Positions 5,178 through 30,225 of a DNA stretch of 64,000 nt are shown here, one piece after another. This DNA is from a virus (lineage: Duplodnaviria > Caudoviricetes): positions 152,911-216,910 of the IMG/VR virus record IMGVR_UViG_3300021399_000099, one strand, 5' to 3'. Under the pieces are notes generated by a model. The model was not told the origin of the DNA. It saw only the letters and a list, made by a program, of their open reading frames with translations, and searched no databases. Numbering within the stretch: the first letter of the stretch is position 1; every line of letters starts with the position of its first letter. Made by a program: the position numbers and the translations under genes.

Positions 5178-5540
5178 TTAAATCAAATTTTCAAGGCAAT
5201 ATTTTATAGCCTCTTCGCAGGCTTCTTCATATGAATTTGTTTTATATGGCTTTTCTCCATTATGAGCAAATATATACCAAATATACGGAAATGCTGAATT
5301 GTTATAACGAAAAACTACAATATGTAAATTATGCACTTCCCTTAACCATTTCATTGCCATTTGAAGTGTTGGGCATGCATAGCAATCCGCATTCAAAACG
5401 GTATTATAGTAACTATCAACATCCAGCCCGAAGAATATCTTATCCTCTCCATTATGGTATAGGGCGTGACACGGTTCGTCAAACCCTTTCTCCTTCAAGA
5501 GTTTTGCCGTTTCAAAACTGACGTAATCTTCTGTTATCAT
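5178..5540 (-). CDS. Hypothetical phage protein
   Basis: 120 aa ORF 'VSFETAKLLKEKGFDEPC...PTLQMAMKWLRE'. Confidence 0.65.
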   Translation of the reverse strand: MITEDYVSFETAKLLKEKGFDEPCHALYHNGEDKIFFGLDVDSYYNTVLNADCYACPTLQMAMKWLREVHNLHIVVFRYNNSAFPYIWYIFAHNGEKPYKTNSYEEACEEAIKYCLENLI

Positions 5541-5713
5541 ATTTGCTACTCAATTTTTTTCTTTATCCTGTTTGTGTCTAAATGACATGTTACAAATGTT
5601 TTTGAAAGAGCGACTTTGTATTCACATTGTTTGCAAATTTCATAAGATATTTTCCCAATATCTTTATTACAGCATTTTTCGCCGTATAAAGTATCAACTA
5701 ATACTGCCATAGT

Positions 5714-19482: not shown

Positions 19483-19568
19483 CGGAGAGCGGAGGTGTCG
19501 AACCCCATACGTTTCACCGTACGAATAGTTTTCAAGACTACCTTCGGAGCCGTCCGAATTCACTCTCC
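19483..19568 (-). tRNA. (8/4) tRNA-Ser(TGA)
   Basis: 8 bp acceptor GGAGAGTG/CGCTCTCC, 4 bp T-stem, 6 bp D-stem. Confidence 0.85.
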
Positions 19569-20495
19569 AAGATTGTTTCGTTTTCTATAGTCAGACATTG
19601 CGTGTTTTCCAACCCCAAAATGTTTTGCTATACTTTTCCACGTTAGTCCAGTTTCCCTAAGTTTTATTACTTCGGCTTTTGAAATATTATCAGTTTTTCT
19701 TTTTATATGTTCTTCTTTAATTTTTCTACCCTTTACCCACCCATTTTTAACATATTCTGCGAGGTCTTCCTTTTTTATTTTTAGGTTTTTTACGCCATTA
19801 GTAATCCAACATGTACCGTACTGTGAATTTTTAACACCAATTTGGTCGCCGTTTGCTCTGTGCGAATTTGACATCTTTTCTTTTGTTAACTCGGAATGGT
19901 TTCTTCCCACCCAAACAGCTTTTAATTCCCCGTTTAAATATCTTTCATCATCAAGATTAACAGACATCGTATTGCCGCTCATATCATAAACGGTTATTCT
20001 TCCTTTAGATTGATGAAGATACCTTTCTTGGTTATTTTTATATTCAGAGGTTTCAATAAGCTTATATTTTTCCTCTTCGGTGTCAAAAACTGCGATTTTT
20101 CCTTTAGAAAAGGGAACATATTTTCCGGAAAGATAATCTTCATCATCCGGCTTAATCCTATAAAAAACACCATTTTCGTCTCTAACCAAGATTGTTCCGG
20201 TGGTGACACCAAAATCACCACCAATTTTTAAGTTATAACAATTGGTATCCAAAACACAAGATTCGGTCACTACTTCATTTTCATATTCGGATGCCTGCTC
20301 TCGTGTTTTAAAATATTTTAGGATTGTCTTTTTAAAATTTTCCTTACCAAACTGTCTATACGCCCTTTTCAATCTCCTTCCAGACCCCATATAGCCATCC
20401 TCAATGTCGTTTGTTGAGTGTATCCCAAAATAATAATTTCCGTTTAACTGGTTTTCAATCTTATAAAAATAATGATATTTGTAATCACGTTCCAT
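19560..20495 (-). CDS. GIY-YIG homing endonuclease (Seg-like) with NUMOD3-like and HTH segments
   Basis: 'YFYKIEN.LNG.YYFGIHST...DGYMGSG', 'YNLKIGG', 'HSELTKEKMS'; stop overlaps the tRNA-Ser 5' end. Confidence 0.85.
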   Translation of the reverse strand: MERDYKYHYFYKIENQLNGNYYFGIHSTNDIEDGYMGSGRRLKRAYRQFGKENFKKTILKYFKTREQASEYENEVVTESCVLDTNCYNLKIGGDFGVTTGTILVRDENGVFYRIKPDDEDYLSGKYVPFSKGKIAVFDTEEEKYKLIETSEYKNNQERYLHQSKGRITVYDMSGNTMSVNLDDERYLNGELKAVWVGRNHSELTKEKMSNSHRANGDQIGVKNSQYGTCWITNGVKNLKIKKEDLAEYVKNGWVKGRKIKEEHIKRKTDNISKAEVIKLRETGLTWKSIAKHFGVGKHAMSDYRKRNNLGE

Positions 20496-21576: not shown

Positions 21577-22677
21577 TTAGTTAGCAGGGGTGCAAGGATT
21601 CAAACCCTGACCAACGGTTTTTAGTATTTCCGGCATATATTTCTTAATGAAATCCATAAGCGTTTGTCTGTTAATACCGGTAGTTTTACTTAATTTAGTT
21701 AGCCACCCTCTTTCACTAGTATCTATTCCCGCCTCTACTATTATTTTTTTTCTATTTCTTATTTTTTCTTTATCTTCTTCCTTTTTTTTAATTTGGCTAT
21801 CTTTTCTCCTCTTTACTGACTCAATAGCCTTTTCTTTCGTATAACAAGTTGCATAAAAATCTGGGTCGTTTTTCATTAAAAATTCCCTAACATGTAATTG
21901 GGTCATTCCAACCAATTCGCCAGCTTTCTTTACCCACCCCCATTTTTGAAAATCTATCCCACTATTTTTTATAGTTTCAAGTTTTTCGGTTGTTGTTTTT
22001 ATTTTTTCCTCTTCTTTTTGAATTTTTTTATTTAGCTTTTCTTCAACCTCTTTTATTATTTCCTTTGCTGTTCTTTTCTTTGCATTTTTCCCGCAATAGT
22101 TATCAGTTAAAGCATGACAGTTTGGGCATAAAATCTGTAGGTTTTCAATAGAATTGTTGGTTCTGTCTCCGTCTATGTGATGAACTTGTAGTGGTATCGG
22201 TTCCCCTTCCCATTCAACTCTTCCACATCTTTCGCACACCCTTTCTTTAATCCCAAACTTAAACAAGTAACCAGATATTCTGCTACTTGATATTAAGCTT
22301 TCCTTTTTAAAAATATCTTCTTCTTTTAAAGAGTTTTTATGCTGGTTGCTTTTCCCCTTTCTATTAAAATGAGTGGTATCTAACCCATATTTTTTGGCGA
22401 TTTTTTTAAATTCTAAATATGTATTACTTCCTACACTCAAATTAAGCTCTTTTGCCACCTCTGAAAAATTGTTTTTTACTTTAATCAGTTCACAAACCGC
22501 TTTCTCCCTTTTTTCTTTTTCTTTTTGGTTTTGCGTAATGTGTTTTTGGTCTTCCATGAATTTTGGCGCAAGAACCAGTTTAATATATCTTTTATCCTCG
22601 TTTAAAATTTTAGAAATTTCTTCCCTTGTTTTTCCTTCATCATATAAGGCATATACCTTTTTCATTCGCTCGTTCAT
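21577..22677 (-). CDS. HNH homing endonuclease
   Basis: 'CERCG...LQVHHIDGDRTNNSIENLQILCPNCH'. Confidence 0.9.
   Translation of the reverse strand: MNERMKKVYALYDEGKTREEISKILNEDKRYIKLVLAPKFMEDQKHITQNQKEKEKREKAVCELIKVKNNFSEVAKELNLSVGSNTYLEFKKIAKKYGLDTTHFNRKGKSNQHKNSLKEEDIFKKESLISSSRISGYLFKFGIKERVCERCGRVEWEGEPIPLQVHHIDGDRTNNSIENLQILCPNCHALTDNYCGKNAKKRTAKEIIKEVEEKLNKKIQKEEEKIKTTTEKLETIKNSGIDFQKWGWVKKAGELVGMTQLHVREFLMKNDPDFYATCYTKEKAIESVKRRKDSQIKKKEEDKEKIRNRKKIIVEAGIDTSERGWLTKLSKTTGINRQTLMDFIKKYMPEILKTVGQGLNPCTPAN
21585..21622 (-). pseudogene. 3' half of a Trp-type tRNA embedded in the end of the HNH gene
   Basis: AAAACCGT-TGGT-CAGGG-TTTGAAT-CCTTG-CACCCCT-G. Confidence 0.6.
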
Positions 22678-22921: not shown

Positions 22922-23392
22922 TTATCTTCTTGCCTTATAGTCGGCCATCGTAGTTGATAGCGGGCAGAGCGTCTTCCATCTACATTCAAATCCCTCTGAC
23001 TCAACCCATCCTTTAGCCGCACTAAAGGCTACGTTAGACCCAGCATCCTCATCCGGACTAATGTCAATGTCAATATACTTAACAAAGATGCCAGAATCCC
23101 TCATTAACTTTGCTACATCAAGAGAAGCCATTGTTTCGTCCATCATTCTGTCAAAAATCTCAGACTTCTTATATCTTCTACTTCTCCAAGTCCTGGAAAT
23201 AACGTGCGCCCCATGTCCATGCTCACCATCGCCACTGTCGTAAAGGGCGACAATTGTAGCAAAACAAGTGTGCCCGCCGTGGCATTGAGAGTCCGTACTA
23301 ACCATAATCTGGATATTACGGTGTGTGTGGCAGTAGTTGCCTACATAAGTTACCAGGTCTATTTTCTCCCCATTAAATTTCTTGAACTCCAT
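22922..23392 (-). CDS. RNase H-like YkuK/DUF458 family protein
   Basis: 'VSTDSQ...FATIVAL...GAH...RMMDE..SL..A...IDIDI...SN...AD'. Confidence 0.8.
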   Translation of the reverse strand: MEFKKFNGEKIDLVTYVGNYCHTHRNIQIMVSTDSQCHGGHTCFATIVALYDSGDGEHGHGAHVISRTWRSRRYKKSEIFDRMMDETMASLDVAKLMRDSGIFVKYIDIDISPDEDAGSNVAFSAAKGWVESEGFECRWKTLCPLSTTMADYKARR

Positions 23393-24437: not shown

Positions 24438-24691
24438 TGGAGGCCCCCGGAGTCGAGCCGGGTTCTCCGGATTGTTTGATGCATAGGATTCGAACCTATA
24501 TTCCCTGCGATGGGGCAACCTTTATGAAGAATACCTGCCTCTTCTTGGATTCGTTTTCACATCTCAGACCGTTACTCCGCTTATCTTTTCACAGTCTCCG
24601 CGGAACTCCTCCCGATGGTATGCCACTTCCCATTCAGCATCAAAGTGTCCATAATTCAGTCCGGTGCATAGACCACCTCTGCCAGACCTCC
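24438..24691 (-). tRNA. Interrupted tRNA (Phe-GAA, or Val-GAC with a different junction); ~180 nt insert holds a nested tRNA-like element
   Basis: CCGGA-CT-GAA|insert|AA-TCCGG; nested TTTGATGC/GCATCAAA stem with T-arm ATAGG-TTCGAAT-CCTAT. Confidence 0.7.
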
Positions 24692-26231: not shown

Positions 26232-26409
26232 CGGGGATAGCAGGGCTCGAACCTACAACCTATTGATTAAGACCCGATAAGAGGAATCGAACCTCTGTTA
26301 CCATGTGTCGTAAGACTAGGTGTCCTATACCACTAAACGATACCGAGTTGGTTAATTTCGGATAACCGCCCCGTTTCAGTCAATTGCTCTACCATTGAGC
26401 TATATCCCC
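26232..26409 (-). tRNA. tRNA-Asn(GTT) with 106 nt intron (26271-26376) containing a nested tRNA
   Basis: ATTGA-CT-G|TT-AA-TCAAT. Confidence 0.85.
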
Positions 26410-26417
26410 ATTGTTTG

Positions 26418-26501
26418 CGTTTGGTGCAGGATTCGAACCTACGGTGTTCTTCACACGGCACATTAACAGTGTGCTGCCTTAAACCACTCGGCCAACCAAA
26501 C
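26418..26501 (-). tRNA. tRNA-Asn(GTT) with long variable arm
   Basis: GCACA-CT-GTT-AA-TGTGC. Confidence 0.85.
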
Positions 26502-26508
26502 ATATTTG

Positions 26509-26587
26509 TCGCGAAGACTGGACTCGAACCAGCATCCCCCTGCCTCCTATGCAGGCCGCTTACAAAAACCAATTAGCGTACTTCGCG
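26509..26587 (-). tRNA. tRNA-Pro(AGG), A34
   Basis: CCTGC-AT-AGG-AG-GCAGG. Confidence 0.8.
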
Positions 26588-26599
26588 TTATATTTTATG

Positions 26600-26671
26600 A
26601 GCCCCTTGTCGGAATCGAACCAACATCTAGGCGTTACGAATGCCTTATAATAGCCGTTATACTAAAAGGGC
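26600..26671 (-). tRNA. tRNA-Thr(CGT)
   Basis: TT-CGT-AA loop. Confidence 0.9.
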
Positions 26672-26774
26672 ATATAATGATAACCGTAGTTGGGTTTGTC
26701 AAAGTACCTTTATCTGCCATATTCTCAAGAGCCCAACCTTGTGGCATTGATTATGTACATGCAGTTATCATTTG

Positions 26775-26847
26775 TGGCGGTAACCGGAGTCGAACCGATA
26801 TCTGGTGGGTCAAAGCCACCCATACTCAGCCTTTGTACGATACCGCT
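26775..26847 (-). tRNA. tRNA-Gln(TTG)
   Basis: GGTGG-CT-TTG-AC-CCACC. Confidence 0.85.
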
Positions 26848-26848
26848 G

Positions 26849-26922
26849 TGGACACATGTGGGATTCGAACCCCTCCTTCACAGTGCAAGTGTGAGGTGCT
26901 ACCAAGTTACACTACACGGCCC
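26849..26922 (-). tRNA. tRNA-Ala(TGC), irregular acceptor stem
   Basis: TCACA-CT-TGC-AC-TGTGA. Confidence 0.75.
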
Positions 26923-26929
26923 ATATTTG

Positions 26930-27018
26930 TGGAACTTACGGATTCGAACCGCCTGTTATCGGGTCTTCCCTCGTTATTTCACCCCGTGAGCATCCGCCCC
27001 CAACTGGCTTTAAGTCCC
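26930..27018 (-). ncRNA. Ala-acceptor (G3:U70) tRNA-like RNA lacking a canonical anticodon arm
   Basis: GGGACTTA/TAAGTTCC-A with TTCGAAT T-loop. Confidence 0.5.
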
Positions 27019-27026
27019 ATATTTTG

Positions 27027-27121
27027 TGGGAGAGGTGAGACTCGAACTCACTTACCGCGAAGGCCAATACGGCTATTTGGTGACGCGGGTTGGTTTTACA
27101 GACCAGTGCCGTTACTCTCCC
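27027..27121 (-). tRNA. tRNA-Tyr(GTA) with relocated D-arm strand, copy 2
   Basis: Same architecture as 26124-26218 with compensatory changes. Confidence 0.75.
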
Positions 27122-27129
27122 ATAATTTG

Positions 27130-27314
27130 TGGCTCCGAAGAGGATTCGAACCTCCATTCAGACAGTAGCCTTCCGGATTGGCACTTGTCCCTGTGTTTAT
27201 TCTTGCGCCCAACCTTTGGCAGCTCGCGACACTGTTGTTCCTCACTGTCAGGTAACCCCTATTACACACTTCCCTCACCATGCAAGGGCGACTTTACCGT
27301 TTGTCTATCAAGCC
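27130..27314 (-). tRNA. tRNA-like gene with ~110 nt insertion in the variable loop
   Basis: GGCTTGA acceptor, D-arm GAC/GTC, T-arm GGAGG-TTCGAAT-CCTCT. Confidence 0.5.
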
Positions 27315-27321
27315 ATATTTG

Positions 27322-27394
27322 TACTCCTATCGGGAGTCGAACCCGAATCCCCGGACTGAGAATCCGGTCGCCTGAACCATTAGCAGATAGGAGC
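27322..27394 (-). tRNA. tRNA-Glu(CTC)
   Basis: CCGGA-TT-CTC-AG-TCCGG. Confidence 0.9.
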
Positions 27395-27422
27395 ATATAT
27401 TTCAGTATGTCAAAGAACATAT

Positions 27423-27501
27423 TGGTACTGGGGACGGGACTCGAACCCGCATTTACCGACTTGAAAGGCCGATTACCTAAGACCAATTAGTAGACCCCAG
27501 C
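27423..27501 (-). tRNA. tRNA-Glu(TTC), CCA encoded
   Basis: TCGGC-CT-TTC-AA-GTCGG. Confidence 0.9.
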
Positions 27502-27507
27502 ATATTG

Positions 27508-27702
27508 TGGTGAGGGTAGGATTCGAACCTACAATAGCCAAATTAAAGGCAGCGAGTGTACGAGTTCGCTTTGCTCACCTACCACGCTCGTAACGTGGAA
27601 TCACAAACTTATCTACATATCAATTATAGTTTCAATAAGATGTACGGTCAAATCTACCTCTATAATCTCAGTTAGCTTCGTCTGAAACTTTGCTGCCTCA
27701 CC
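27508..27702 (-). tRNA. Tyr-like class II tRNA body with ~110 nt D-region insertion
   Basis: GGTGAGG/CCTCACC-A; T-arm GTAGG-TTCGAAT-CCTAC; AGCGA/TCGCT arm. Confidence 0.5.
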
Positions 27703-27739
27703 ATATATATCAATGAACTTTTATATCAATGAACTTTAG

Positions 27740-27813
27740 CGGTCCTGACCGGATTCGAACCGGCACCACGCACCGTGACAGGGTGGCATTGTAAACCATT
27801 CAACCACAGGACC
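27740..27813 (-). tRNA. tRNA-Asp(GTC)
   Basis: CT-GTC-AC loop. Confidence 0.9.
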
Positions 27814-27821
27814 AATATTTG

Positions 27822-27934
27822 TGGAGATAGATGGCATCGAACCATCACCCGTTATTTTTTCTCAGATTTGTACTCTGACCGAACTTGCAGCTTTCGCCTT
27901 GGGCCCGCACTCTGCCATATTGAGCTATATCCCC
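27822..27934 (-). ncRNA. Ala-acceptor tRNA-like RNA with anticodon arm replaced by a ~55 nt domain
   Basis: GGGGATA/TATCTCC-A (G3:U70); normal D and T arms. Confidence 0.55.
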
Positions 27935-27942
27935 ATTTAATG

Positions 27943-28027
27943 TGCGTCCAATGGGACTCGAACCCATAACGCCTTACGGACCCCTCTGATTAAAAGTCAG
28001 ATGCGCTACCAATTGCGCCATGGACGC
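27943..28027 (-). tRNA. tRNA-Lys(TTT) with long variable arm
   Basis: TCTGA-CT-TTT-AA-TCAGA plus ~16 nt variable region. Confidence 0.85.
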
Positions 28028-28100
28028 CTAATTTTCAAAGAACTTTTCTAATATATTACAAAAGCCATGCCAAACTTTTTCAGTTCTTATAATTTTTTTG

Positions 28101-28175
28101 TCGGGACAGAAAGATTCGAACTTTCATTGCTACTGTATCAGAGTAGTATCCTAAGACCGTTTAGATGATGTCCCG
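28101..28175 (-). tRNA. tRNA-Ile(GAT)
   Basis: CTACT-CT-GAT-AC-AGTAG. Confidence 0.85.
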
Positions 28176-28196
28176 TTATGTTTCAAATAACTTTTG

Positions 28197-28271
28197 TGGT
28201 CCCGGTGGGATTCGAACCCACAACCCGACGGGTAAGAGCCGCCTACGCTAATCCAGTTGCGCCACGAGACC
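28197..28271 (-). tRNA. tRNA-Lys(CTT)
   Basis: GGCGG-CT-CTT-AC-CCGTC. Confidence 0.9.
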
Positions 28272-28282
28272 ATATTTATTTG

Positions 28283-28357
28283 TGCCCCCGGTGGGACTCG
28301 AACCCACAATCACGCACCTTAAAAGGGTGGAGCTTTAACCAATTCAGCTACAAGGGC
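28283..28357 (-). tRNA. tRNA-Lys(TTT)
   Basis: CACC-CT-TTT-AA-GGTG. Confidence 0.9.
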
Positions 28358-28442
28358 TTTCCAAGAACCTATTTGCCGGCTTAATTTATTACCTGTAACC
28401 GGCAGGCTCCATTTTCTTTCTTAGCCCTCGTATCTTGGAGAG

Positions 28443-28679
28443 CTAAAGATTGTATTTTCGTTTAAACTCTTTCATATCTATTTCTTCTTTTTTAACTTCC
28501 GTTCTTTTTCCGTTAATGACAACTTCAATGGGGAACTGTGATTCGTCCCAGAAATACTCTTCCGGCTTCACCTTTGTTCCGTCTTCAAAAAACAATTCAC
28601 ATTCTCCCCTTTCAATCATCTTCCTAACCATCAAGGTTGCAACATAAATTGCTTCTATTTTTTGTTCGTTGTCTGTCAT
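28443..28679 (-). CDS. Hypothetical protein
   Basis: 78 aa ORF directly after the sigma54-like motif at 28692-28707. Confidence 0.55.
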   Translation of the reverse strand: MTDNEQKIEAIYVATLMVRKMIERGECELFFEDGTKVKPEEYFWDESQFPIEVVINGKRTEVKKEEIDMKEFKRKYNL

Positions 28680-28905
28680 ATTGTCTATATTATCAAAAAC
28701 CGTGCCAAACTTTACTTTTGAAACGGACTTTTTAATCCTTTCGTGTAAGGTATGTAGTAAAGTACTTGATTATCAGTCAAATTCTCGTACCACTCGTCAA
28801 AGTACTTAAGAAACTTCTTATGTACGTTATACCTCCACTCGTTCCAAAGGTATTCTTTTAACTTATCGTTTTGCCCCGCTTTCCATAACTATATTCTTTA
28901 TTTCG

Positions 28906-28979
28906 AGCCCAGAGCCGGATTCGAACCGGCGAATGTCAGTTTTGCAGACTGATAGGTTAGACCACTTCCCCATCTGGGC
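28906..28979 (-). tRNA. tRNA-Cys(GCA)
   Basis: TCAGT-CT-GCA-AA-ACTGA; U73. Confidence 0.9.
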
Positions 28980-28987
28980 ATATTTTG

Positions 28988-29066
28988 TGGAGCGGACGGG
29001 GTTCGAACCCGCAACTCCATCCCTCATATAACTGAATGGCTTTTCCGTTTTTAAAGCTACCACCCC
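28988..29066 (-). tRNA. Ala-acceptor tRNA-like RNA with 11 nt anticodon loop
   Basis: GGGGTGG/CCGCTCC-A; CATTC-AGTTATATGAG-GGATG. Confidence 0.5.
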
Positions 29067-29072
29067 ATTTTG

Positions 29073-29145
29073 TACCCCGGGCCGGAATCGAACCGACATC
29101 TTATGTTCCGTAGACACACGCTCTAATCCGTTGAGCTACCAGGGC
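29073..29145 (-). tRNA. tRNA-Arg(ACG)
   Basis: CT-ACG-GA loop; A20. Confidence 0.9.
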
Positions 29146-29152
29146 ATTTTTG

Positions 29153-29223
29153 TAGTCCCAATGCGAATCGAACGCATATCGTAGGAATCGGAATCCTAAA
29201 TTCTTCCGTTAAACTATGGGACC
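29153..29223 (-). tRNA. tRNA-Arg(CCG)
   Basis: TAGGA-TT-CCG-AT-TCCTA. Confidence 0.9.
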
Positions 29224-29404
29224 ATGGTAGCCGTGACTTTAATTACGCAGTTACACGGCACCCCTATCTCTGCGAGCAACCATTACGGTTTCTGTTAGGG
29301 TTATGTTGCTATCAACCCGTCAGGCCGTCGTCCCTGCTCTAGCGCTGCTTCCGCGACAGACACAATTTCTTCCCTATCTCAGTCTAAGGGGAACCTGACT
29401 ATTG

Positions 29405-29479
29405 AGCCCTCAGTCGGATTCGAACCAACACTTTTACCATACCACAGTAATGTACTCAACCATTAAATACGATAAGGGC
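29405..29479 (-). tRNA. tRNA-Thr(GGT)
   Basis: TTACT-GT-GGT-AT-GGTAA. Confidence 0.85.
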
Positions 29480-29487
29480 TTAAAACG

Positions 29488-29665
29488 TACCCCCGTGCAG
29501 ATTCGAACTGCAATTAAGAGTTTAGGATTGGGTAGCGGGAATTGAACCACGCGACACACTGAGGAATTGCTTCCACCGGCTCTGACCACCTGAGCTATAC
29601 CCGATAATTTGTTTCGGTAAATTACTCCGTGTAAGACTCTGGTCCTTCCATTGAACGACAGGGGC
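29488..29665 (-). tRNA. tRNA-Arg(TCT) with 107 nt intron (29526-29632) containing a nested tRNA-like element
   Basis: AGAGT-CT-T|CT-AA-ACTCT. Confidence 0.85.
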
Positions 29666-30110: not shown

Positions 30111-30124
30111 ATATAATCTTATAT

Positions 30125-30206
30125 TACAAATACCGTGCCAAACTTTTCAAACTACTAAAAAAAATTTCATTTGTTTCTGGACCACTATATTACAAATACC
30201 GTGCCA
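30125..30206 (-). promoter_or_regulatory. Two identical sigma54-type promoters at the head of the tRNA array (30125-30140, 30191-30206)
   Basis: TGGCACGGTATTTGTA twice. Confidence 0.65.
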
Positions 30207-30225
30207 AACTTGAGTTGTGGGTATT

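Follow-up and report, generated by a model that had tools for sequence, protein, structure and literature searches.

Two tRNA genes in the 64,000-nt stretch of phage DNA analysed here (the window; positions 152,911 to 216,910 of IMG/VR record IMGVR_UViG_3300021399_000099) are interrupted by a real, recurring tRNA intron that is not of the group I type, has a conserved leader joined to a nested tRNA-like unit, and was found in seven copies. The insert is best explained as a discrete, probably mobile "tRNA-shaped intron." Read on the minus strand, tRNA-Asn(GTT) (26232-26409) carries an insert of 106 nt (26271-26376) and tRNA-Arg(TCT) (29488-29665) an insert of 107 nt (29526-29632), each directly after base 34; the coordinates, lengths and split after the wobble base given in an earlier note on this DNA proved exact. 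A third nested case lies in the same array. The features are as follows.

26377..26409, minus strand: tRNA-Asn(GTT) exon 1, bases 1-34; junction from contigs joining 26270 to 26377
26349..26376, minus strand: Asn intron leader, AA-ACGG-GGC-GGTTA-T-CCGAAAT-TAACC-A
26363-26367 and 26350-26354, minus strand: arms of the Asn leader hairpin, which covaries
26371-26373 with 26359-26361, minus strand: proposed pairing S1 of the Asn leader, invariant
26271..26348, minus strand: Asn nested tRNA-like unit; 8-bp acceptor ACTCGGTA/TATCGGGT, D arm, T arm, degenerate anticodon arm, terminal C74
26232..26270, minus strand: tRNA-Asn(GTT) exon 2, bases 35-73; same contig junction
29633..29665, minus strand: tRNA-Arg(TCT) exon 1, bases 1-34
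29606..29632, minus strand: Arg intron leader, AC-ACGG-AGT-AATTT-A-CCGAAAC-AAATT
29526..29605, minus strand: Arg nested tRNA-like unit; acceptor ATCGGGTA/TACCCAAT with one C.A mismatch, D arm GCTC/GAGC, GCAA tetraloop hairpin, T arm with one bulge, terminal C
29488..29525, minus strand: tRNA-Arg(TCT) exon 2; intron-less allele at L071:1656-1727
24438..24691, minus strand: tRNA-Phe(GAA) with a 181-nt insert at 24474-24654

The leaders read AAACGGGGC-GGTTA-TCCGAAAT-TAACC in tRNA-Asn and ACACGGAGT-AATTT-ACCGAAAC-AAATT in tRNA-Arg, and each is followed, as had been described, by a nested unit with an 8-bp acceptor helix, a D arm (U8, GG) and a T arm (GTTCRA), but without a proper anticodon arm. 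That arm is replaced in the Arg unit by a GGAA-GCAA-TTCC tetraloop hairpin, and the Asn unit is called by ARAGORN as a tRNA with a 4-nt "anticodon." A strain variant observed in metagenome contigs, 29603 G>A, converts the C.A mismatch of the Arg nested acceptor to a U:A pair. The Rfam tRNA model covers each of the two split genes as a whole. The single C before exon 2 is no spacer but position 74 of the nested unit, a position occupied by C in 99 of the 101 tRNA genes of this phage lineage, about 9% of which encode a full CCA. In tRNA-Phe, the insert consists of a 10-nt unstructured leader, a tRNA-like shell (8-bp acceptor TTTGATGC/GCATCAAA and T arm) and then C; the ACGG/CCGAAA leader is absent from this insert.

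Both junctions of the Asn and Arg introns are known to the base because alleles that differ by exactly the insert coexist. In a sister strain, the syntenic position of the array holds this tRNA-Arg uninterrupted (L071:1656-1727; loop CTTCTAA), and metagenome contigs run directly from 26270 to 26377 and from 29525 to 29633, with zero positional slack; intron-less joints are also present in DNA contigs from a goat-gut run. In the leader-class copies, the 5' junction always lies 2 nt before ACGG and the 3' junction always directly after the 3' end of the nested unit. Put as a rule, 3 nt of intron precede the first leader helix and one base (C74) follows the nested helix. The point of insertion into the outer tRNA is less uniform: for Asn it is 34/35 in the window and in L071 but 35/36 in L083 and L018, and for Arg it is 34/35 in the window but 35/36 in L082. 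Given that the boundaries are constant although the position in the anticodon loop varies, it is the intron, and not the outer tRNA, that sets both ends, and the boundaries move together with the intron.

Textbook tRNA introns of bacteria and phages are group I ribozymes, which have a P3-P7 catalytic core, a terminal G and a length above about 200 nt. Group I introns of bacterial, plastid and phage anticodon loops, such as the cyanobacterial tRNA-Leu(UAA) intron at 34/35, share with the present introns their location, apparent mobility and phenotypically silent insertion. By contrast, the window introns lack a P1-P9 core and a terminal G and are about half the minimum size: they are 106 and 107 nt long, end in C and gave no Rfam intron match at gathering score or at E=10. 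The earlier statement that they are not group I introns agrees with all three observations.

The claim of a wholly distinct intron class did not survive comparison with Lak megaphages, whose tRNA introns have been called "enigmatic" since 2019 (Devoto et al. 2019, PMC6784885, Fig. 4 and Table S6; restated in PMC13037316, 2026). Both papers mention merely that one intron "may encode a tRNA"; the leader, the rule for the junctions and any mechanism go undescribed in them (PMC6784885, PMC13037316). When the sequences in Table S6 of PMC6784885 were parsed by eye, all four published introns showed the same order of parts, namely NNA, a leader hairpin, an A/U-rich linker, a tRNA-like unit with a 13-bp acceptor plus T stack, and a final C. 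The Lak Thr intron ends at the C after the nested acceptor strand, according to its alleles with and without the insert and to our reading of the paper's "offset by one." These, too, are anticodon-loop inserts in tRNA genes of huge gut phages and are polymorphic in presence or absence between strains. The window introns thus appear, from their layout, to be a leader-bearing variant of the Lak introns. They differ from them in the leader, which in Lak has varied sequences (stems CAGG/CCTG, ACAG/CTGT, CAATC/GATTG and ACAAG/CTTGT) and here contains ACGG...CCGAAA, with a loop able to pair with the linker in a possible pseudoknot, and in the insertion point, which is 35/36 or 36/37 in Lak and 34/35 or 35/36 here. 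The phage lineage also differs from Lak: the source phage is a very large one of the ruminant gut, with a genome estimated at about 350 kb.

The leader is conserved elsewhere. Five further leader-class copies were found in ruminant metagenomes, giving seven in total plus a degenerate eighth, on at least five phage contigs and in tRNA-Asn, tRNA-Arg and tRNA-Lys genes. Under a covariance model, the seven copies scored 62-114 bits and anything else 44 bits or less, and the 217-kb record contains ACGG-N9-CCGAAA at two places only, each of them the intron-leader position; given this rarity and this gap in score, the leader match exceeds chance. The 27-nt consensus is NN-ACGG-N3-stem-N-CCGAAAY-stem, in which the ACGG and CCGAAA blocks are invariant among the seven copies. 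The stem between them (S2) covaries as claimed, with two-sided changes at four of its five pairs and pairing in 100% of cells. The proposed S1 pairing, CGG:CCG, shows no variation in the seven copies, and the degenerate Lys copy, in which both conserved blocks are altered, has A.A at one S1 pair. The acceptor and T stems of the nested unit also covary. A free-standing copy (L054:4969-5069) has no flanking tRNA halves and lies 3 nt behind a promoter-like motif that is the one preceding tRNAs in the window; its homology to the intron copies begins and ends at the intron boundaries. This apparently promoter-driven form may point to a mobile RNA module able to exist both within tRNA genes and apart from them.

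As to how the insert leaves the RNA, we know of no tRNA for which the removal route of such an intron has been worked out. The likeliest route, to which we give an even chance, is one in which tRNA end-processing proteins cut out the insert and a phage RNA ligase reseals the tRNA, as opposed to self-splicing. Here, the enzymatic steps are inferred from the observed anatomy, boundaries, covariation, constraint on the genes, and ligase and CCA-adding genes. The nested unit retains the 13-bp acceptor/T stack, the D/T elbow and the N73-C74 end and has lost the anticodon arm; the retained parts are exactly those read by tRNA end-processing enzymes. Given that the unit ends like the phage's own tRNA genes, 3' endonuclease cleavage and CCA addition would be expected, and an ORF of the CCA-adding family is encoded. 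An RNase Z-type 3'-end endonuclease would cut after the nested C74, leaving a 5'-phosphate on exon 2, and RNase P could act at that unit's 5' end. Acting alone, RNase P would leave exon 1 with 27 extra nt, or with 10 in tRNA-Phe. An additional cut, specified by the leader and lying 2 nt upstream of ACGG (3 nt upstream of the first leader helix), would release exon 1 with a 3'-OH. With the halves held together by the outer acceptor and anticodon stems, the phage's ATP-dependent RNA ligase would then close the break in the anticodon loop.

RNase Z and RNase P, like the PF09414-type ligase family, operate with 3'-OH and 5'-phosphate termini. A cut after position 74 of a 13-bp stack departs from the textbook site of RNase Z, which is after position 73, and Rnl2-type ligases favour nicked duplexes over loops. 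To our knowledge, no nuclease cuts 3 nt upstream of a helix, and the 5' step has no candidate enzyme. The earlier proposal of ligation by RtcB or by Pnk/Rnl stands in that an ATP-dependent RNA ligase ORF is encoded (PF09414, PHROG 548/968), but neither Rnl1 nor Pnkp was found in the record, which is 61% complete, and RtcB was absent from the same fragment in a search that detected the Bacteroides thetaiotaomicron (B. thetaiotaomicron) control. The associated idea that the precursor hides the anticodon from nucleases until it is spliced gained no support. More tentatively, the introns may represent a third way of tRNA splicing beside group I and BHB/EndA, with a tRNA-mimic intron excised by ordinary tRNA end-processing enzymes, a leader-set 5' cut and rejoining of 3'-OH and 5'-phosphate ends by a phage ATP-dependent ligase; the leader would then be a nuclease guide or a very small ribozyme. 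In a bacterial system, a tRNA intron whose removal depends on proteins would, if true, be new biochemistry, and the locus offers base-exact junctions, natural intron-less alleles, diverged copies, a junction rule, candidate enzymes and a free-standing copy.

The free-standing copy bears on a different and rather unlikely explanation, that the leader and tRNA-like unit are primarily a small RNA (a stable tRNA mimic or decoy) and that the intron copies are its insertions. The leader would then serve 5' stability and folding rather than splicing, and the 5' cut would be made by a general single-strand endonuclease of the RNase E/G type, favouring A/U-rich stretches beside a hairpin, or the end would arise by exonuclease nibbling until a ligase captured the intermediate with a 7-nt loop. 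The promoter-like motif ahead of L054:4969-5069 and the confinement of homology to the intron boundaries are consistent with this, as are the unstructured 10-nt leader of the Phe intron and the first bases of the leaders (AAA, ACA, TAA, ATA), which resemble the A-rich trailers after C74 of ordinary tRNAs. However, an anticodon needs single-base accuracy, a precision that RNase E-type cleavage and exonuclease stops seldom reach. The spacing of 2 nt to ACGG, unchanged across the seven copies, argues instead that the leader positions the cut, and no function is known for the free RNA.

That constant distance between cut and motif would also suit a new small ribozyme, formed by the leader alone or with the tRNA-like scaffold, that, in the manner of HDV-like and hatchet ribozymes, cleaves itself at its 5' edge, or that even splices itself. 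The invariant, single-stranded-looking ACGG and CCGAAA around a covarying stem have the pattern of a catalytic or ligand-binding core. Such a ribozyme, raised as a possibility in the earlier note, is nevertheless very improbable. Rfam searches of both split genes at E values up to 10, covering hammerhead, twister, pistol, hatchet and HDV-like ribozymes and pseudoknot riboswitches, returned tRNA only, with no ribozyme or riboswitch family. At 27 nt, the leader is smaller than any natural self-cleaving ribozyme known to us. The same kind of intron has plain hairpins of different sequence in Lak and an unstructured leader in tRNA-Phe, and the degenerate Lys copy changes both conserved blocks. Unless extra healing enzymes acted, cyclic phosphate and 5'-OH ends would moreover misfit an RNase Z-generated 5'-phosphate and the encoded ligase, and RtcB is not in the fragment.

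Whether the inserts are removed at all is addressed by the outer helices. The acceptor stems formed between exon 1 and exon 2 are GGGGATA, GGGCACG and GGGAATG, and the anticodon stems ATTGA, GCGGA and ACGGA, each with a matching 3' strand. Given that these helices keep pairing through many two-sided changes between phages, the intron-bearing genes are functional and evidently remain under selection, and the covariation of exon 1 with exon 2 implies, at the level of sequence, that the insert is removed from the RNA. Contigs from RNA runs contain joints that skip the insert, but these joints also exist in DNA, and one such contig has intron-less-like flanks; these RNA contigs derive from intron-less strains. 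That observation and the circulation of intron-less alleles in the same populations would also fit inserts that are never removed and that killed both tRNA genes, an explanation to which we attach extremely little probability. Dead genes would not be expected to keep the exon 1:exon 2 helices perfectly paired by compensatory changes across diverged phages. In the record, no TCT decoder was found besides the split Arg gene, and the one other gene with a GTT anticodon has an aberrant class-II shape. In Lak phages, too, this design is retained from cohort to cohort.

Archaeal-type splicing, in which an EndA-like endonuclease cuts a bulge-helix-bulge (BHB) and RtcB joins the ends, is scarcely credible: RtcB does occur in the host phylum, as the B. 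thetaiotaomicron control showed, but a search of the 61%-complete record for the EndA family (PF01974) matched archaeal controls only, and the junction strands (5' side: 3-5 exon and 3 intron nucleotides; 3' side: 1 intron and 2-4 exon nucleotides) are by inspection unequal and variable, not two 3-nt bulges 4 bp apart, in line with the earlier remark that no such motif was apparent.

Removal by end-processing proteins and a ligase would have partial parallels. In tRNA punctuation and in MALAT1/mascRNA, a tRNA-like fold likewise serves as a landmark for cuts by RNase P and RNase Z, but the flanks are not rejoined, whereas the tRNA flanks here would need ligation to give a working anticodon loop. 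In phage T4, a phage ligase likewise seals a held-together break in an anticodon loop (PrrC damage, Pnkp healing, Rnl1 sealing); that reaction repairs host-inflicted damage with cyclic-phosphate ends, whereas the step proposed here would be programmed and would use a PF09414-type ligase.

Standard tRNA finders miss or mis-assign genes of this kind, which distorts estimates of codon capacity in huge phages. In intron mode, ARAGORN placed the junctions one base to the left and called the two genes Lys(CTT) and Arg(CCT), assignments that the L071 allele and the metagenome joints show to be wrong.

The genes at 26232-26409 and 29488-29665 (minus strand) are full cloverleaf tRNAs except for 106 and 107 extra bases, respectively, in the anticodon loop, and the Rfam tRNA model covers each from end to end (26232-26409 and 29488-29665). 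Read on the minus strand, each insert comprises a 27-nt leader, a tRNA-like unit and a single C, exactly the architecture that the earlier note had described. Both nested units contain an 8-bp acceptor helix, U8, a D arm with GG and a T arm with GTTCRA; a usable anticodon arm is absent from both, and a GCAA tetraloop hairpin is found there in the Arg unit. A candidate pairing of leader CGGG with CUCG of the nested acceptor, present in the minimum-energy fold of the Asn insert, is impossible in Arg and was discarded. A nested insert was also observed in a tRNA-Phe gene.

24438-24691, minus strand: tRNA-Phe(GAA) with a 181-nt nested insert

Here, a 10-nt unstructured leader is followed by a tRNA-like shell (8-bp acceptor, T arm), which encloses ∼110 nt of extra structured RNA, and then by C.

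The proposal that insertion occurred right after base 34 in both genes was upheld by natural alleles. On contig L071, whose strain is near-identical and shares the gene order, an uninterrupted 72-nt tRNA-Arg gene lies between Val(GAC) and Thr(GGT), with the loop CTTCTAA and compensatory changes in the anticodon stem. In addition, contigs from four public runs were aligned to the window. Position 26270 was joined to 26377 in goat-gut DNA contigs, and 29525 was joined to 29633 in contigs of two sheep RNA runs and the goat DNA run, with zero slack in either joint. Given these two independent observations, the intron-less allele of L071 and the joined metagenome contigs, the junction question is settled: the mature loops are CTG/TTAA (Asn GTT) and CTT/CTAA (Arg TCT), and the insert lies between bases 34 and 35. 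The junctions proposed by ARAGORN in intron mode, one base leftward to give Lys(CTT) and Arg(CCT), are ruled out by the intron-less alleles. The 29525/29633 joints from the two sheep metatranscriptomes were rejected as proof of splicing, since the DNA run has the identical joint. Given that DNA contigs also contain the joined form, and that the loose end of one joined RNA contig resembles the flank of intron-less strain L071, the joined contigs are not evidence of splicing. The intron-bearing form was likewise present among the RNA-run contigs; for Arg, it was the sole form in the sample of run X19. In addition, no back-joined (circular) intron was seen in the run contigs over the covered parts of the window.

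In the split genes, the outer acceptor and anticodon stems form between exon 1 and exon 2, the tRNA halves on either side of the insert. Intron-bearing Asn genes have the acceptors GGGGATA, GGGCACG and GGGAATG and the anticodon stems ATTGA, GCGGA and ACGGA, each with a matching 3′ strand, and the two intron-bearing Arg genes show the same pattern of differing but matched outer stems. Judged from these comparisons, the assembled tRNA has long been under purifying selection, which makes sense only with removal of the insert from the transcript.

Within the 217-kb record, ACGG-N9-CCGAAA occurs twice, only at the Asn and Arg inserts. Further copies were gathered by pattern scans and with a covariance model (R1). 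The scans yielded one copy in IMG/VR (L018) and five in metagenomes, one of these being on the same contig as L018. No leader-class copies were detected by pattern scans of GTDB genomes and the rest of IMG/VR, or by R1 in the more distant relatives G002-G005.

Copies of the leader-bearing unit (copy; gene; insertion point; remarks)
Window Asn copy; tRNA-Asn(GTT); 34/35
Window Arg copy; tRNA-Arg(TCT); 34/35
L071 copy; tRNA-Asn; 34/35; sister strain
L083 copy; tRNA-Asn; 35/36
L018 copy; tRNA-Asn; 35/36; on a 94-kb contig, proteins ∼50% identical to those of the window phage
L082 copy; tRNA-Arg(TCT); 35/36; nested unit larger
L054 copy; free-standing; no insertion point
Eighth, degenerate copy; split tRNA-Lys(TTT), CTTT/.../TAA; L071:∼5440-5610, plus strand

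Alignment of seven copies gave the leader consensus NN-ACGG-RRY-stem-W-CCGAAAY-stem. The covariation previously claimed for the leader hairpin was borne out: all cells of the 5-bp helix are paired, with two-sided changes in four of the five pairs (variants GGTTA/TAACC, GGTTC/GAACC, GGCTC/GAGCC, AATTT/AAATT and TATTC/GAATA). Covariation extends to the acceptor and T stems of the nested unit, and on four of five measures the whole structure outscored each of 500 shuffles and every slid register. The degenerate Lys copy keeps the hairpin (leader AAGG...GGTTC-A-CCATAAC-GAACC); the T loop of its nested unit, TGCAAGT, is atypical. Pairing of the leader CGG with the loop CCG would create an H-type pseudoknot that is sterically ordinary. 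This pairing is invariant across the seven copies, and in the Lys copy both partners of one pair are changed, to A.A; given that it never varies, covariation is silent for or against it.

Orthologous tRNAs differ in insertion point (34/35 versus 35/36), yet in every copy exactly 2 nt of intron precede ACGG and the last intron base is the C after the nested helix; both boundaries belong to the intron. In all nested units, those of the Lak megaphage introns included, a 13-bp acceptor plus T stack is followed by one unpaired C. Among ordinary tRNA genes in the arrays of the window phage (G000), the related phage G001 and contigs L071, L082 and L083, position 74 is C in 99 of 101, and the base preceding the tRNA is mostly T (TAT/G context). 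Lineage tRNA genes have A at 75 in ∼80% of cases and encode full CCA in only ∼9%. Such a pattern suggests a lineage-specific rule for tRNA 3′-end processing. Given C74 in 99 of 101 genes, the nested unit ends like any of the phage's own tRNA genes, and its terminal C is not a spacer. The 3′ splice site is the tRNA-to-trailer transition point of all lineage tRNA genes.

The Arg insert is present or absent between near-identical strains, and one copy stands outside any tRNA gene.

L054:4969-5069, contig JAEEGL016131967.1, plus strand: free-standing leader plus tRNA-like unit

This copy is intergenic, without surrounding tRNA halves, and is followed by ∼170 nt of GC-rich structured sequence; its homology to the intron copies begins and stops at the intron boundaries. 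A promoter-like motif, AAGTTTGGCAYGG-N5-T/GNAATATA, ends 3 nt upstream of the unit. The window form of this motif, AAGTTTGGCAYGG-N5-TGTAATATA, for which the chance expectation is none, lies just upstream of window tRNAs (28052-28077, 30120-30145 and 30186-30211, minus strand). Presence or absence between strains, shifting positions in orthologous tRNAs and the free-standing copy are signs that the insert is a discrete, mobile unit.

The nested unit has retained the features read by RNase P, RNase Z and the CCA-adding enzyme and lost what the ribosome reads. A CCA-adding-family protein and an ATP-dependent RNA ligase (PF09414; PHROG 'RNA ligase') are phage-encoded; the ligase ORF (309 aa) lies in the region of G000 138190-138528, and a PDB search returned no sequence relative of it. 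RNase Z, RNase P and ligases of the PF09414 class all handle 3′-OH and 5′-phosphate ends. In the proposed model, a tRNA 3′ endonuclease would cut after the nested C74, the unit might then be released by RNase P (an optional step), a 5′ cut would be made at a position set by the leader, and the ligase would seal the halves, held together by the outer tRNA. The weak point of this four-step model is the 5′ cut, since after RNase P cleavage exon 1 would still carry the 27-nt leader (10 nt for the Phe intron), and no nuclease known to us cuts 3 nt ahead of a helix. Inspection by eye across the copies revealed no conserved pairing that would make the 5′ site a substrate of RNase P, RNase Z or RNase III or a BHB, none between the first bases of the intron and its last bases or exon 2, and no conserved RNase III-like duplex spanning both sites. 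RtcB, Rnl1, EndA and metallo-β-lactamase families were unmatched in the 217-kb record, absences that are uninformative given that the record is 61% complete, that the Rnl1 control was silent and that RNase P and RNase Z would come from the host.

An alternative view, to which the free-standing copy lends weight, is that the leader is part of a functional free RNA and that the 5′ cut is made by a general RNase. That the leader is a ribozyme is unsupported: no Rfam family matches it at the gathering score or at E = 10, the motif is very small, and the leaders of the Lak and Phe introns are quite different. A preQ1/queuosine link, Asn carrying Q34, was dropped, since Q is absent from Arg, Lys and Gly.

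A 2019 paper reported tRNA introns in Lak phages, described them as enigmatic and remarked that one 'may encode a tRNA' (PMC6784885); a 2026 survey restates the remark (PMC13037316). Parsed by eye, four of these (Devoto et al. Table S6, PMC6784885) fit the layout of the window introns, with NNA, hairpin, linker, tRNA-like unit and C in order; the leader has a 4-6-bp hairpin, an A-rich hexaloop and a 7-11-nt A/U-rich linker. According to the authors, comparing alleles that have the Lak Thr intron with alleles that lack it moves the predicted boundary by one base (PMC6784885). In our reading, this shift would place the intron end at the terminal C and yield a normal CTTGTAA loop. Applied to the Lak 'Tyr(GTA)', the terminal-C rule would make this tRNA an Asn(GTT), in keeping with its short variable arm. 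Literature searches found no mechanism and no leader description for such tRNA introns. The present locus adds a sub-class with a conserved leader, junctions fixed to the base by natural alleles, the C74 rule, evidence for function of the split genes and a free-standing copy.

The window forms the right end of a 217-kb huge-phage fragment (completeness 61%, CheckV), and its minus-strand tRNA array spans 21 kb, with ∼50 tRNA genes, a tmRNA and a CUA suppressor tRNA. The presence of BACON, DUF3575 and BspA-LRR domains in phage proteins suggests a host among the Bacteroidota, and the runs containing the stretch came from gut samples of goat, sheep and cattle. Three protein-coding genes are embedded in the array.

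19560-20495, minus strand: GIY-YIG homing endonuclease gene
21577-22677, minus strand: HNH homing endonuclease gene
22922-23392, minus strand: PF04308 RNase H-like ORF

The GIY-YIG and HNH genes are candidate drivers that could account for spread at the DNA level. The PF04308 ORF, conserved in G001 with 49% identity, is a candidate RNA nuclease.

Five over-long or unassigned tRNA-like stretches also lie in the window.

26935-27020, minus strand: tRNA-like stretch
27130-27313, minus strand: tRNA-like stretch
27830-27935, minus strand: tRNA-like stretch
28985-29070, minus strand: tRNA-like stretch
29225-29400, minus strand: tRNA-like stretch

Outer T arms are present in these and a standard cloverleaf is absent; they do not belong with the nested-tRNA introns described above. 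At G001:C1:27814-28441 (minus strand), a tRNA-Arg(TCT) with a 554-nt insert is predicted by ARAGORN in intron mode. Directly adjoining the split tRNA-Asn gene is an 85-nt tRNA (26417-26501, minus strand) with a GTT (Asn) anticodon on a class II body, with a long variable arm and a Ser/Leu/Tyr-like D arm.
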